A DNA stretch of 64,000 nt from the NCBI GenBank assembly GCA_965261085.1, contig OZ253442.1, forward strand, positions 4,203,821 to 4,267,820, read 5' to 3'. Shown here one piece after another: positions 3,161-9,045 of the stretch. Numbering within the stretch: the stretch's first letter is position 1; each line of letters begins with the position of its first letter. The DNA is from a bacterium (GTDB lineage: Bacteria > UBA8248). The notes below the pieces were generated by a model. The model saw only the letters and a list, made by a program, of their open reading frames with translations. It had not been told where the DNA came from and ran no database searches. The translations under genes were made by a program, and so were the position numbers.

Positions 3161-3237
3161 TGGAGCCGACGACCGGAGTTGAACCGGTGACCTGCTGATT
3201 ACGAATCAGCTGCTCTACCTGTCTGAGCTACGTCGGC
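3161..3237 (-). tRNA. tRNA-Thr(CGT)
   Basis: Reverse complement GCCGACGTAGCTCAG...CTGATTCGTAATCAG...GGTTCAACTCC...GTCGGCTCCA; cloverleaf with encoded CCA. Confidence 0.95.
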
Positions 3238-3421: not shown

Positions 3422-3497
<76 letters not shown>

Positions 3498-3769: not shown

Positions 3770-4507
3770 ATGGACAGAAGCATCTGGGCGACCTGGTACG
3801 ACCTGCCGAAAGAAGATGAAGAAGAGTACAACGACTGGCTCCACCACACGCACATAAAAGACGCGCTCAAACGCCCCGGCTACATGTGGGCGGCCCACTA
3901 TGAACTCGTGGACAGGGAATCGCCCAAATCAAAGAAAAAAGACCACTTGGCCTACACGGACGACCCCTCGATCCCCAGCGGCACGGAGTTTCTGCTCCTG
4001 TTCGGGGCGGCGAGCGCGGAGGTTTTCTTAAGCCCCAACCCCGCCCAACTCGCGGAGACGTACTCTGATGAGACGAAGGCGATGACCGCCAAGAGAATCG
4101 GCGAGCGCACCGGCATATTCACCGAAGTCGACAGGGTGAACGGCCCGGACGCAGCCACCCGCGCGGTGGGCGGCGTGCCCGCGCCGATAGTCCAGATGGG
4201 CACGTTCAACTGCTTCACGCCCGAGGACGATTTTGATCTCAGTTCCTGGTACGCGCAGGACCGCCTGCCCGCGATGAAGTACATGCGCGGCTGCGTGGGC
4301 ACGCGCAAGCTGGTCTCCGTGGCGGGATGGGCGAAGCACTCCATCTTTTATGAATTCGCCTCGCTCGAGAAAGTCCTCGCGCACTTCCCGCGCGCGGACA
4401 AGCTCTTCCCCGGCGAGAACGACTGGTCGTATCACGTATGCCAGCGCCTGCTCCATGCGCCCGGCTCGCCCACTCGCGGCAAGCGCATCTGGCCGCCGGT
4501 GGAATGA
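3770..4507 (+). CDS. Hypothetical protein with two putative dimeric alpha-beta barrel (EthD/DUF4286-like) repeats
   Basis: EEEYNDWLHHTHI...PGY and FDLSSWYAQDRLP...GC patterns; GGGG RBS. Confidence 0.6.
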   Translation: MDRSIWATWYDLPKEDEEEYNDWLHHTHIKDALKRPGYMWAAHYELVDRESPKSKKKDHLAYTDDPSIPSGTEFLLLFGAASAEVFLSPNPAQLAETYSDETKAMTAKRIGERTGIFTEVDRVNGPDAATRAVGGVPAPIVQMGTFNCFTPEDDFDLSSWYAQDRLPAMKYMRGCVGTRKLVSVAGWAKHSIFYEFASLEKVLAHFPRADKLFPGENDWSYHVCQRLLHAPGSPTRGKRIWPPVE

Positions 4508-4523
4508 GTAAGGGGGCGTAAGA

Positions 4524-5204
4524 ATGAGTTATATGAAACCCATCCCCGTCGAGGAAGCGGAAGGCGAAGCCACGAAACTATTCGCAGGCGTGACGAAGAT
4601 GCTCGGCCGCGTGGCGAATTCCTTCGCCGTCATGGCCTATCAGCCCCACGTCGCCAAGGTCATACTGCCGCTCACCGTCACGCTCATGCGCGAGGGGCTG
4701 GGCACGGTGCTTCCCACCAAAATCAAGGAAATCTCAGTCATCAAGACGAGCCACCTGAACGGGTGTGAATACTGACTCGGGCACAACACGGCGCTCGGTC
4801 GAGACGCCGGGGTCACCGAAAAGCAAGTGCGCGAGATCTGCTCGGACGCCTATATGGACTCCCCTACGATGAGCCCAAGAGAGAAAGCCGCCGTCCTGTG
4901 GGCGGAGCACGTGACGCGCAACACCGCCAAGACGCGCGACGACGTGTTCCAAGAGGTGAGGCGTCATTATGATGATCGCGAATTCGTCGAGCTCACCATG
5001 GTCATCACCTATTTCAACATGAGAAACCGCTTTCAGGACGCCCTGCGCATTCCGCTGGATGAACCTAAAACGATATCGGGCATCACCCTCGGGCGCAGGC
5101 AGGACCCCGAAAACCTCAAAACCTATCTCGAAGAGGTGGCGGCGGAGTGGCCCGAGAGTTTTCCGGGGCCGGATGAAGACGATAAAGGGGAGCGTCACGC
5201 ATGA
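4524..5204 (+). CDS. AhpD/CMD-family protein with in-frame TGA (4773-4775), probable selenoprotein, 226 aa
   Basis: ORFs 4524..4775 and 4827..5204 share one frame; reads TSHLNGCEY-U-LGHN...MSPREKAAVLWAEHVT...FNMRNRF. Confidence 0.85.
4789..4809 (+). promoter_or_regulatory. Putative bacterial SECIS element
   Basis: CGGCG-CTC-[GGTC loop]-GAG-A-CGCCG hairpin starting 14 nt after the TGA; the loop starts with GG. Confidence 0.7.
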
Positions 5205-5644
5205 GCGAGAAGCCCGATTTCGTCTGGGAGAATTTACAAGTCGGCATGACCATCGGTGAGCGCAGCCTCACGGTGACGCAAGAGATGGTGGATGCGCACT
5301 GCGACGCCGTGGGCGCAAAGCGGGAATGGTATGCGGGCGAATCGCCCGCAGGCGGGTCCATCGCGCCGCCGATGATATTCATCAACGACCTGCTCGCCAT
5401 TTATGATGAGAACTACAAGCGCTTCGGCACCATCCACGCGAAGCTCGGCTACCGCTTTCACCGGCCCGTGCGAGTCGGTGAGACGGTGCGCCAGAAAGTC
5501 ATTGTCAAGGACTTATACGTGAAGCGCGAGAAGGGCTGGATAGTGAGCGAACTCAGCGTTGCGAACGAGGCGGGCGAGTTGCTCTTGACCTCCTCGCACA
5601 CGTCGGTCTTAAGCCTCACGAGAAAGCACCAGGATAATGACTGA
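5201..5644 (+). CDS. MaoC/hotdog-fold protein, probably the non-catalytic subunit
   Basis: IAPPM, IHAKLGYRFHRPVRVGE; lacks DxxxxH; ATGA overlap with upstream gene. Confidence 0.75.
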   Translation: MSEKPDFVWENLQVGMTIGERSLTVTQEMVDAHCDAVGAKREWYAGESPAGGSIAPPMIFINDLLAIYDENYKRFGTIHAKLGYRFHRPVRVGETVRQKVIVKDLYVKREKGWIVSELSVANEAGELLLTSSHTSVLSLTRKHQDND

Positions 5645-6068
5645 CTCACTACTTAAAAACATGGAAATCGGCGACGCTCTGCCCGAGCGGACACACAAAG
5701 TGGACTGGGAGGATATTCTCAAATTCAACCGCTACGTCACCGGCGGCGTGGATACCAAGAACATTCACACCGACGATGAGGTGGCCCGAAAGGCGGGCCT
5801 GCCCCGGGCGGTGGCGACGGGCCGCCACCCGGTGTCCTTCATCACCGAACTCATGGTCGATCATCTGGGCATGGGCTTCATCACGGGCGGAGAGATTGAT
5901 GTCTCCTTCGTGAAGCCTATTTTCCCGGGCGACGTTTTAAGCCTTTCGGCGACGCTCAAGGAGAAATCTTCGGACGATGGCGCGAAGAACTATCTGTTCG
6001 ACGTTTCGCTCACGAACCAGGACGGCGCCGCCGTCACGCTCGGCACCGCCGGCGGACGCATCAACTAG
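5637..6068 (+). CDS. MaoC-family dehydratase, catalytic type
   Basis: DTKNIH (D-x4-H) motif, FVKPIFPGD. Confidence 0.85.
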   Translation: MTDSLLKNMEIGDALPERTHKVDWEDILKFNRYVTGGVDTKNIHTDDEVARKAGLPRAVATGRHPVSFITELMVDHLGMGFITGGEIDVSFVKPIFPGDVLSLSATLKEKSSDDGAKNYLFDVSLTNQDGAAVTLGTAGGRIN

Positions 6069-6079
6069 CCTCAGGCCCC

Positions 6080-8185
6080 ATGAACGCACGAAAATCCCTA
6101 AAAAGCCTCTTTCACCCGAAATCCTTCGCCGTAGTGGGCGCAGCCTCGAACCTGAACCGCTTAGGCGGTATCCCCCTGCGTCTCACGATGAAATACGGCT
6201 TTCCCGGCCCCATCTACCCCATCAACCCGAGGCGTGAGGAGATAGCGGGGCTTAAGTGCTATCCCGACATCGCCTCTCTGCCGGAAGCGCCCGAATTCGC
6301 GCTCATCTGCACGCCGAGAGAAGACGTGCTCCCCGCCCTCGCACAATGCGCGGAACGCGGAGTAAAGGCCGCCGCCGTCATCACCTCCGGCTTCGCGGAA
6401 ACGGGCGCAGAGGGAGTCGCGCTTCAAGAGAAGATTCTCGCACTTCGCGACGCATCGGGGATGCGGGTGCTCGGCCCCAACTGCATGGGCGTGGTGCACG
6501 TGCGCTCACGCCTCATGGCCACGTTTACGATATCCATCAGGGATGACGACCCGCTCATTCCAGGGGCCGTGGCCATCGTCACCCAGAGCGGGGCCATGGG
6601 GGCCTGCATGCTCACGGGCTTTCAGGAGAGTGGTTCAGGCATCAGCAGCCTCGTGAGCCTCGGCAACGAGGTGGACGTTGATTTCGCGGAATGCGTCGAA
6701 TACTTTCTGGACGACCCGCACACGCGCGTCATTTGCGGGTATCTGGAATCCGTGCGCAATGGCAAGCGTTTGAAACGCGCCGCCCGGCGCGCCTTGGAGC
6801 TTGGGAAACCCATCGTCCTGCTCAAGGGCGGTAAGACCGAAGAGGGAGCCCGCGCCGCGCGCAGCCACACCGCCGCCATCACGACCTCAAGCGATGTTTT
6901 TGACGCCTTCGCCGAACAATACGGCGTTCAGGTGCTGGGCTCCATGGATGAGTTCATCGAAATAGCGGATTTCCTCGCGCGCACAAAGCCGATTCAAGGA
7001 AACGGGGTGGGGATTTTAAGTTTCTCGGGCGGGCTGGGCGCGCTGGCCGCAGACTTAAGCACGGACGCAGGTCTCAGGCTTCCCGTCCTCGGCGAGAAAA
7101 CGCAAGAAAAGCTCGCTGCCGTGCTGCCCGACTACGCGCCCAAGGACAATCCGGTGGACCTCGTATCCCTAATGGTCAGCCAACCCGAGAGCCAGCCGCT
7201 CAAAACCGCAGGGGAAGCGGTGGCATCGGATGAGAGCGTAGACGCCCTGCTCTTCCTCATGGGCATTTATCACCACGTGGGCGAGCAGATAGCCGAAGAA
7301 GTGAAGGCGCTGTTCAAATCCTCGGAAATCCCCATCGCCTTCGCCTGGCTCACGGGGCCGCGAGAGTACATACATGCGCTCAGGAAAGCCGACGTACCCG
7401 TTTTTGGCGATTATTCACGCGCGATTCGCGGCCTGGAATCCCTCTTATCCCTCGAACACGCGCGCGAGACCGCCTCGTCTCAGCACTTCTCGAAAAACCA
7501 CACAAGGAAGGAGGCGGCCAGGCGAAGCATAAAGCGGGGCCGCGCATCGGCCGATGGTTTTCTGCCGCCTGAAACCTGCGCCGAAATTTTGGACCTCTAC
7601 GGTATCCCGAGACCACGGGAAATTCTGGTCGATACGGCGGATGAAGCACGCAAGACGTGGGAGGAGTATCAAACCCCCGTTGCGCTCAAACTGGTATCGG
7701 AGAGCCTCTCGCACAAGACCGAGGCGGGCGGCGTGATCCTGTATCTCGATACACCCGAGGAGGTGCTGGCCGGAGCCGAAAAATTGCTTACTCTCACGGA
7801 TGACGCGCGCCTTCTGGTGCAGGAGATGGTCGGAGGCGGCATAGAGCTTCTGGTCGGCATATCGCGGGATGAGACGTTCGGGCCGTGCGTCACGGCGGGG
7901 CTGGGCGGGGTGTATGTGGAGGCGCTGGGCGACGTGGCCCGCCTGCTGCCGCCTTTTGACGCCGCACAGGCCGAAAGGGCGCTATCGGGCCTTCGCTCGC
8001 GCGTCATATTCGATGGCTTCCGGGGCGGTCCCAAAGTTCAAATCTCGCGCATATCCGATATAATGGTCAAAATATCGAGGCTGGCGCTGGAGTTGAGACA
8101 CGAGATCGCCGAGATGGACCTGAACCCGCTCATCGCCACGGCTAAGGGCTGCATCGCCGTGGACGTTCGGATAAAAAGGACCTGA
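6080..8185 (+). CDS. ADP-forming acyl-CoA synthetase (fused alpha-beta, acetate-CoA ligase family)
   Basis: PKSFAVVGAAS, GPNCMG, QSGA, SLGNE, SHTA phospho-His, NPVD, HKTEAGGV ATP-grasp, DLNP. Confidence 0.9.
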   Translation: MNARKSLKSLFHPKSFAVVGAASNLNRLGGIPLRLTMKYGFPGPIYPINPRREEIAGLKCYPDIASLPEAPEFALICTPREDVLPALAQCAERGVKAAAVITSGFAETGAEGVALQEKILALRDASGMRVLGPNCMGVVHVRSRLMATFTISIRDDDPLIPGAVAIVTQSGAMGACMLTGFQESGSGISSLVSLGNEVDVDFAECVEYFLDDPHTRVICGYLESVRNGKRLKRAARRALELGKPIVLLKGGKTEEGARAARSHTAAITTSSDVFDAFAEQYGVQVLGSMDEFIEIADFLARTKPIQGNGVGILSFSGGLGALAADLSTDAGLRLPVLGEKTQEKLAAVLPDYAPKDNPVDLVSLMVSQPESQPLKTAGEAVASDESVDALLFLMGIYHHVGEQIAEEVKALFKSSEIPIAFAWLTGPREYIHALRKADVPVFGDYSRAIRGLESLLSLEHARETASSQHFSKNHTRKEAARRSIKRGRASADGFLPPETCAEILDLYGIPRPREILVDTADEARKTWEEYQTPVALKLVSESLSHKTEAGGVILYLDTPEEVLAGAEKLLTLTDDARLLVQEMVGGGIELLVGISRDETFGPCVTAGLGGVYVEALGDVARLLPPFDAAQAERALSGLRSRVIFDGFRGGPKVQISRISDIMVKISRLALELRHEIAEMDLNPLIATAKGCIAVDVRIKRT

Positions 8186-8192
8186 CGAGAGG

Positions 8193-8633
8193 ATGCGCAT
8201 GAGCAAGAGAATCACGCCCGAAATCCGCGCCCTGGTGGGGCGAAAGCACGGCCCCTACAGAGTAAAAGTCGAGCAGGGCGCGATCGAAAAATTCGCAGAC
8301 GCCATCGGCGACCCGAACCCGGCCTACCGGGGAGTCGACGCCATCGCGCCCCCCACCTTCCCGACCACCTTCAGGACAAAGGACGCCTTTCCCGATCTGC
8401 CGCCTGATTTCGGTGACGTGGGCCTCCACGCTTCGCAAGCCTATGAGGTGGAGCGACCCATCCGTGCGGGCGATGAGCTGGATGTTTCCTTCACCATCTT
8501 GGGCATCACCGAAAAATCGGGCCGCACGGGCGATCTGGTCTTCGTAGAGCGAGAATACGAATTTCTGGACGCGCGCGACGGCTCCCGCGTGGGCGGGGGC
8601 AAGTGGGTATCGCTCAGGCGATTCAGGAACTAA
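8193..8633 (+). CDS. MaoC N-terminal/HadA-like hotdog protein
   Basis: FADAIGDPNPAY, APPTF, LHASQAY. Confidence 0.85.
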   Translation: MRMSKRITPEIRALVGRKHGPYRVKVEQGAIEKFADAIGDPNPAYRGVDAIAPPTFPTTFRTKDAFPDLPPDFGDVGLHASQAYEVERPIRAGDELDVSFTILGITEKSGRTGDLVFVEREYEFLDARDGSRVGGGKWVSLRRFRN

Positions 8634-8643
8634 AGGAGAGGCG

Positions 8644-9045
8644 ATGCGCTACAGACATGGCGATAAACTCCCCGAACTCGTAAAGGAACCCGTATCGCGG
8701 ACACAGCTCGTGAAATACGCAGGATCCAGCGGGGATTACAACCCGATTCACTATGACGACGAGGCGGCGCGGGCGGGCGGTCTCGAGGGCGTCATCGCCC
8801 ACGGGATGCTATCGATGGGCTTTTTGGGGCATTTCATTGAGAACACCTTCGGCGCGGGAAGCTGCAAAAGGCTCGAAGTCCGCTTTCAGGGCATGGTGAA
8901 GCTCGGCGAGGTCATCACCTGCCGGGGCGTCGTCACCGACATCACGCAAGAGAAGAACCGATCATACGCCACCTGCGAGATCGAGGCGGTAGACTCAAGC
9001 GGCCGCGTCGTCACCAGGGGCTGCGCCCAGGCCTGGCTGGACTGA
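8644..9045 (+). CDS. MaoC/HadB-like dehydratase
   Basis: YAGSSGDYNPIH, IAHGM. Confidence 0.88.
   Translation: MRYRHGDKLPELVKEPVSRTQLVKYAGSSGDYNPIHYDDEAARAGGLEGVIAHGMLSMGFLGHFIENTFGAGSCKRLEVRFQGMVKLGEVITCRGVVTDITQEKNRSYATCEIEAVDSSGRVVTRGCAQAWLD

Follow-up and report, generated by a model that had tools for sequence, protein, structure and literature searches.

Organization of the locus

The window, that is, the whole 64,000-nt stretch of bacterial DNA that was analyzed, carries a putative AhpD-like selenoprotein gene situated between a 245-residue gene of unassigned family and a run of genes for hotdog-fold hydratase subunits and an acyl-CoA ligase (Table 1). The ORF listing contains an 83-residue ORF (4524–4775) and a 125-residue ORF that begins at GTG 4827 (4827–5204). 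Both ORFs share one frame, and translation with TGA as U yields a continuous frame of 226 codons whose only break is the TGA at 4773–4775, as the first-pass annotation of this DNA had recognized. The codons GGG TGT GAA TAC precede this TGA and CTC GGG CAC AAC follow it. The motif in the product is C81-E-Y-U84, a CxxU motif in which selenocysteine (Sec) would be the second redox residue, and the earlier placement of the TGA at the second Cys of the AhpD motif is thereby confirmed. All coordinates and distances given for the finding at that stage proved correct on re-reading of the sequence.

Table 1. Features of the locus and of the Sec pathway. Positions are those of the window, except for entries marked G000, which refer to the window's genome.
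Feature	Position	Strand	Description
Upstream gene, 245 aa, family unassigned	3770–4507	+	Ends 16 nt before the start of the selenoprotein gene; no Pfam or NCBIfam match
Shine-Dalgarno-like AAGGGGG	4510–4516	+	7 nt 5′ of the ATG; read from the sequence, putative function
AhpD-like selenoprotein gene (putative)	4524–5204	+	226 codons plus TGA stop; complete
Cys81 codon TGT	4764–4766	+	First residue of C-x-x-U; nearly invariant in alignment A4
UGA codon, U84	4773–4775	+	Putatively read as selenocysteine; second position of the C-x-x-C redox motif
His87 codon CAC	4782–4784	+	Invariant column in alignment A4
SECIS-like hairpin	4789–4809	+	8 bp; bulged A at 4804; apical loop GGUC at 4797–4800; present in the MFE fold
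Terminator TGA	5202–5204	+	Overlaps the ATG (5201–5203) of the next gene
Downstream genes	5201–8185	+	Two hotdog-fold (MaoC/HadAB-like) hydratase subunits and an ADP-forming acyl-CoA ligase
selA	G000, C1:1300825–1302210		579 bits
selB	G000, C1:1297998–1299884		384 bits; adjoins selA
selD	G000:C1:3459–4421	-	L011; 336 bits; one in-frame TGA
tRNA-Sec	G000		75.9 bits; ARAGORN: tRNA-SeC, anticodon tca
Further CxxU ORFs (L095–L105, examples)	G000:C1: 1024772, 45199, 3985070, 1237162, 788367	-, -, +, +, -	
Further CxxU ORFs (L095–L105, examples)	G000:C1: 2816790, 3470987, 2392660, 847042, 2333815	-, -, -, +, +	
Further CxxU ORFs	G000:C1: 1661547, 354196	+, +	

The order of these genes is kept within the genus, in 18 of the 25 loci listed, although some carry inserts of 0.1–1.9 kb after the selenoprotein gene. 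In the same 18 loci, all of them within-genus orthologs, the 245-residue upstream gene is adjacent and its product is 84–97% identical. None of the four neighbors was matched in the seven more distant loci of the 25 listed. For the 245-residue protein, the ESM Atlas gives weak hints of EthD/DUF4286 (0.90–0.91), and its conservation exceeds that of the selenoprotein in 17 of the 18 linked loci. None of the five neighbors examined is a peroxiredoxin or ahpC-like gene. The genetic link to ahpC that characterizes AhpD proper is therefore not seen among them, and the genomic context names no substrate. After the acyl-CoA ligase lies a second pair of small ORFs (8193–9045, forward strand), the second of which is HadB/MaoC-like, so the cluster comprises at least three hotdog-fold hydratase subunits. 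Two divergent tRNA genes lie just upstream of the cluster, at 3164–3237 on the reverse strand and at 3422–3494 on the forward strand.

Residues and codons at position 84

Among 20 aligned database homologs, the column of U84 is occupied by Cys in 12, Trp in four, Ser in three, and Ala in one. When one genome per species was scanned, 80 loci were recovered, with 84 HSPs that include this column; 77 of these HSPs carry TGA, six carry TGC, and one belongs to a frame-disturbed copy. Many of these loci come from the same genomes as the six-frame search described below, and the two counts are not independent. The TGC forms are found in MAGs labeled Alphaproteobacteria/Rhodospirillales, Flavobacteriales, and Gammaproteobacteria. 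The pairing of Cys with TGA at this column, which had been proposed as a check, is thus found both in the proteins and at the nucleotide level. An in-frame UGA at a column where homologs have Cys is one of the criteria for a bacterial selenoprotein gene.

Four public full-length entries (P0014, P0017, P0019, and P0021) have Trp at the Sec column, in the context N-G-C-A-Y-W. These entries probably reflect a gene caller or pipeline that used another genetic code and translated the TGA as Trp.

Of 61 genomes searched in six frames, 47 gave matches, among them every one of the 36 genomes that belong to the same family. The ortholog set consists of the 20 best loci (the window's own and 19 others), one per genome and 66–93% identical. 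The TGA is present at the nucleotide level in all 20 loci and in frame at codon 84 in 19 of them, as the claim of a conserved Sec codon requires of homologs; the genomes compared are mutual relatives, so counts across them are not independent. In the 19 in-frame orthologs, the TGA stands between N-G/E-C-x-Y and L-G-H-N. The twentieth, L043, has the identical nucleotide sequence including the TGA, flanked by a deletion and an insertion of 1 nt each, which lie about 110 nt from one another. The terminal stops of the 20 orthologs are TGA in 15, TAA in four, and TAG in one. Since the terminal stop varies while codon 84 stays TGA, stops drift at the gene end but never at codon 84.

A hairpin directly downstream of the UGA codon

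The hairpin that follows the UGA codon (CGGCGCTC/GGTC/GAG-A-CGCCG) has its first base at the 14th nucleotide after the TGA and the first G of its loop at the 22nd, and both distances agree with those given when this SECIS-like element was first pointed out. Considered alone, the hairpin is modestly better than chance, with an MFE of −27.1 kcal/mol over 71 nt, a z value of −2.15, and an equally good fold in 5 of 200 shuffles. Its conservation and covariation lend stronger support. Across 19 orthologs, 99.1% of the cells are paired and four pairs are compensatory (slid controls, 25–50%), and the observed values of three of the five measures were attained in 0 of 500 shuffles; all four compensatory pairs stem from one sequence, L044. 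In L044, which is the most distant ortholog, four pairs are changed on both sides, and the GGUC loop and a bulge are kept. The orthologous hairpin is almost invariant, synonymous sites included, and the changes seen are compatible with pairing. One of them, an A to G substitution in the stem that turns U-A into U-G, occurs in four of the 14 distinct ortholog sequences.

The paralogs provide more variation. At 31 paralog sites, which belong to this genome and to related ones, the stem has 8 bp, no bulge, and the same register, with 76.6% of the cells paired against 63.6 ± 2.0% after shuffling. Two-sided changes occur in seven of its eight pairs and amount to 38 cells, where 19.2 would be expected, a value reached by none of 500 shuffles (slid controls, 35–64%), and the inner five pairs are the best kept. 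Most Sec forms have 7–8 of the 8 pairs formed; the six Cys forms, with loops GGCA or GGCC, have at most 7, 5, 5, 5, 5, and 5 of 8. The covariation in orthologs and paralogs bears out the assignment of the hairpin as SECIS-like. It overlies the conserved peptide H-N-x-x-L-G-x-x-x-G, and the GGU of the loop is a Gly codon. More distant subfamilies have other hairpins at a similar distance from the TGA.

The SECIS element of E. coli fdhF also has a GGUC-type loop. Bacterial SECIS elements are stem-loops directly 3′ of the UGA with a G in a small apical loop, the loop criterion being that of PMC1088965, and the hairpin at 4789–4809 with its GGUC loop has this form. At gathering thresholds, Rfam returned two tRNAs and nothing else over the whole window, and a permissive scan of positions 4700–4900 returned four chance-level matches (E 2–3) to unrelated families. 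As no Rfam family covers the hairpin, Rfam neither supports nor rejects its identification as a SECIS element.

Selenocysteine machinery in the genome

The window's genome contains selA, selB, selD, and tRNA-Sec, all four of them scoring above their curated cut-offs, so the machinery that had been named as a check on the selenoprotein reading is present. The in-frame TGA of selD indicates that the selenophosphate synthetase itself contains Sec.

These observations bear on the possibility that UGA 84 is read as an amino acid other than Sec (Cys, Trp, or Gly), for example by a suppressor or recoded tRNA. The four database homologs with Trp at the column are compatible with such decoding, in that some pipelines translate contigs of this kind with TGA as a sense codon. 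However, TGA terminates the window's gene, its upstream neighbor, and 15 of the 20 orthologs, and accordingly TGA is not a general sense codon. The complete Sec pathway with its tRNA-Sec (anticodon tca) further argues against read-through with another residue, as does the covarying hairpin at a fixed distance after the UGA. To our knowledge, a need for such a hairpin at a fixed distance from the UGA is known only for the SelB route, as summarized in part of PMC9312934. We therefore consider decoding as Cys, Trp, or Gly very unlikely, and the UGA is better read as a Sec codon.

Conservation on both sides of the UGA codon

Comparison with the window's gene gave dN/dS values of 0.05–0.31 for codons 1–83 (18 comparisons) and 0.11–0.31 for codons 85–215 (17 comparisons with values, one dS being saturated); the frame-disturbed L043 was excluded. 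As judged from these ratios, both halves of the gene are under purifying selection. The 18 within-genus orthologs vary in 10 columns of a 48-nt alignment that begins with the TGA; eight of these columns are third codon positions, and this bias also covers the stretch between the TGA and GTG 4827. Codons 85–101, which make up that stretch, are conserved as protein and include the invariant H87.

A TGA acting as a true stop would leave either a pseudogene or an 83-residue product together with a separate 125-residue product starting at GTG 4827. Standard ORF calling yields exactly these two pieces, and for this ortholog group the public protein sets hold 12 C-terminal fragments of 125–141 aa (83–89% identity) and no full-length entry above 53% identity. 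The records thus look as the first-pass annotation had anticipated in stating that standard annotation would split the gene, with only the downstream fragment held in the public sets. In contrast, the TGA is kept in all 20 orthologous loci, down to 66% protein identity, and dN/dS is low on either side of it. Furthermore, codons 85–101, which would be untranslated if the second product began at GTG 4827, are conserved as protein with variation mainly at third positions, and a stop at this point would cut the CMD domain inside its active-site motif. Termination at codon 84 is accordingly extremely unlikely, and the two listed ORFs are more plausibly the halves of one Sec-containing protein.

A second in-frame TGA occurs in the ortholog L041 (genome G001), at codon 175, where it replaces the Arg of the conserved D-x-L-R-I-P-L. 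This TGA is either a nonsense mutation or an error and not another Sec codon.

Sequence support for the UGA codon

Contigs from four public runs were aligned to positions 4300–5400. Bridging contigs come from the RNA-library run X18 and from X1, X2, and X14, a set of runs that spans three studies. In the X14 contig, all five differences are listed away from the TGA. X1, X2, and X18 have no listed difference at 4773–4775, each of their contigs carrying one to six unlisted differences. Only X14 has all of its differences listed elsewhere, and the TGA is therefore strictly shown only in that contig. The X18 contig, of 432 nt over 4389–4820, bridges the TGA and the hairpin; only three of its nine differences are listed, and position 4717 shows a deletion of 1 nt at a depth of about 4. 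Since DNA can occur in RNA libraries, this contig is not counted as evidence of transcription.

That an assembly or sequencing error has turned TGC or TGT into TGA, the refutation raised at the outset, has a negligible probability: the assembly is a single contig of the metagenome type with an estimated contamination of 5.27%, and the same gene in a related long assembly (L043) shows indel noise, but the TGA stands in the independent run X14 and recurs in 19 other genome assemblies.

In genome G006, indels at codons ~63–100 (L043/L121) bracket the Sec codon and the hairpin, and between the indels the native reading continues in a different frame. The disturbance reflects indel noise of the long reads or, alternatively, a young pseudogene; the estimated contamination of that assembly is 16%.

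Predicted fold and family

The Pfam CMD model (PF02627), which describes the AhpD/CMD core, matches residues 60–128 (E 2.9e-10; 40.4 bits against a cut-off of 23), and the domain consequently runs across the TGA. TIGR00778, the AhpD core domain, is matched at 30.2 bits, above its cut-off of 27.8. Residues 2–178 cover 174 of the 178 positions of TIGR01926 ('peroxidase-related enzyme'; E 2.1e-17) with a score of 63.5 bits, short of its cut-off of 81.8. Among the NCBIfam models, NF053654 ('YciW-related (seleno)protein', GroundWater_YciW) is matched best, aligning over residues 2–178 with an E value of 4.4e-21. The CxxU chemistry and a full-length alignment are common to this model and the window's protein, but the score of 75.4 bits is far under the equivalog cut-off of 310, and the protein was not assigned to that equivalog. 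Two AhpD-type (seleno)protein models, NF041238 and NF041047, give weak matches of 30 and 16.6 bits.

An AlphaFold2 model built from 22 aligned sequences has a mean pLDDT of 87.6. C81 is located just before the helix formed by residues 82–94, and U84 lies in the first turn of this helix. A Foldseek search of the PDB with this model returned AhpD-like proteins first, with 30 matches at E ≤ 0.001. The top matches are mlr4105 (3c1l), Deinococcus radiodurans AhpD (6k40), 'peroxidase-related' proteins, and the debrominase Bmp8 (6ohi), with TM scores of 0.62–0.64 on the query for matches of ~180 residues. The shorter PA0269 (2o4d/2ijc), which is the nearest solved relative by sequence (E 1e-18), has a TM score of 0.53 on the query. 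The predicted fold is thus AhpD-like. The solved Cys-type proteins (PA0269, 6k40, 3c1l, and Bmp8) share the all-helical AhpD fold, and their N-G-C-x-Y-C corresponds to N-G-C-E-Y-U in the window's protein. They differ in having Cys at the position of the putative Sec and in lacking its extra C-terminal segment, and their identity to it is 16–30%.

E69, C81, Y83, and U84 align with Glu36, Cys48, Tyr50, and Cys51 of PA0269, respectively, which are described as proton-relay residues in part of PMC3141380. The invariant H87 is positioned one residue before the column of PA0269 His55. It therefore lies at +3 from U84 rather than at +4 as in PA0269 and Mycobacterium tuberculosis AhpD, and the analogy to the proton relay is imperfect. 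M. tuberculosis AhpD, an AhpC-reducing adaptor, likewise has a CxxC-type redox pair in the same helix-turn-helix motif, whereas its chain topology differs from that of the PA0269-type proteins, according to the same passages of PMC3141380.

The window's protein resembles most closely the AhpD-like CxxU family (COG2128/YciW, TIGR01926; 'AhpD-like 1' of GOS), with which it has in common the CMD domain, the CxxU motif with Sec in second place, a SECIS element right after the UGA, Cys homologs, and a length of ~180–230 aa. Relative to the TIGR01926 model, it adds a conserved C-terminal extension of ~45 residues (178–226) that includes the invariant W209. As had been noted for this locus, AhpD-like selenoproteins were already on record: part of PMC1088965 reports CxxU proteins of this kind (COG2128) in 2005, with 27 sequences from the Sargasso Sea. 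The 2008 GOS survey gives 299 members of 'AhpD-like 1' (PMC2398784), and in a 2026 review (PMC13188914) the family appears under TIGR01926. The gene is a further member of this selenoprotein family, known since 2005 and abundant in marine metagenomes, and it opens no new kind of system.

Proposed mechanism of UGA decoding and catalysis

Gene structure, conservation, Cys/Sec pairing, RNA structure, machinery, and fold have all been established computationally. Conservation, Cys pairing, the covarying hairpin, the machinery, and the fold support the full-length 226-residue Sec enzyme that had been proposed for the locus, and on this basis it is highly probable that 4524–5204 constitutes a single gene, encoding a 226-residue AhpD-like (CMD-superfamily) thiol/selenol oxidoreductase in which U84 is a genuine selenocysteine. 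The insertion of selenium itself, the catalytic chemistry, and the substrate are what we infer in the following model.

As the ribosome nears the UGA at 4773–4775, the hairpin at 4789–4809 with its GGUC loop would recruit SelB carrying GTP and Sec-tRNA(Sec), and Sec would be inserted at this codon in place of termination. The TGA at 5202, which is followed by no such hairpin, would terminate translation. In AhpD, the nucleophile is the second Cys (Cys133 in the M. tuberculosis enzyme). The fold and the motif suggest a catalytic role for C81 and U84 as a selenol/thiol redox pair. By analogy with the CxxC pair of AhpD, they may cycle between the selenol/thiol and selenenylsulfide forms and thereby reduce a substrate, candidates for which are a peroxide, a peroxiredoxin, or another oxidized or electrophilic compound.

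The main value of the finding is an annotation fix. Because the public sets contain only the C-terminal fragment of 125–141 aa, the active-site half of the protein and its selenium dependence are invisible to users of these records. In addition, the gene is a well-documented case of a SECIS element that lies within a conserved coding motif (H-N-x-x-L-G) and evolves together with it.

Expansion of CxxU genes in the lineage

The window's genome (4.27 Mb) contains 14 CMD-superfamily ORFs with CxxU, of which 12 were found with the present protein and two more with PF02627 (Table 1). Most of the 13 ORFs besides the window's gene have a hairpin at a similar distance after the TGA. At least one close Cys paralog is present in the genome as well, and relatives have 4–22 matches per genome. 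Relatives of this genome are labeled Nitrospinota or Tectomicrobia MAGs. By comparison, a table in PMC1976440 lists five AhpD-like selenoproteins and two distant AhpD homologs for the Olavius delta-1 symbiont, fewer than the 14 CxxU genes found here. The literature on AhpD-like, Nitrospinota/Nitrospinae, and UBA8248 selenoproteins that was searched describes no such expansion; the tables of BSepDB may contain it. Table 2 of BSepDB (PMC13326102, 2026) places three 'Nitrospinota/Nitrospinae' MAGs of the GTDB phylum UBA8248, with 54, 50, and 48 selenoprotein genes, in the top ten of selenoprotein-rich bacteria. The 14 AhpD-type CxxU genes bear on the heavy selenium investment made by some marine and symbiotic bacteria.

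Contigs nearly identical to the window occur in runs labeled sponge metagenome, and Bmp8, one of the fold matches, is a thiol-dependent debrominase. A speculative reading, which we regard as unlikely, is that the CxxU paralogs form several subfamilies, each with its own covarying SECIS element, and that they would act as substrate-specialized selenol reductases rather than as one redundant antioxidant. On this reading, and in light of the two observations above, some of them could be selenium-dependent reductive dehalogenases or detoxifiers of electrophiles from the host or the symbionts. If the dehalogenase reading were true, these proteins would provide a bacterial parallel to the Sec-dependent deiodinases.

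Several members of the group depart from the common pattern. In the CxxU copy at 2933007, just 60 codons follow the TGA and the HSPs fall in two frames; this copy is apparently truncated and possibly frameshifted. In the paralog L093 (genome G033), GGA (Gly) replaces the TGA, the SECIS-like hairpin is kept, and a TAG occurs in frame elsewhere, so that the sequence looks like a decaying copy. The database entries P0002, P0003, P0006, and P0023 (293–337 aa) have their start within the C-terminal half of an AhpD-like unit and run on into a second one, which lacks the first Cys. Genome G035 (L075/L076, on contigs C19 and C61) has three such AhpD-like genes in tandem on one contig. These entries and genes are AhpD-like units, arranged in tandem or fused, with alternation of Sec and non-Sec forms.
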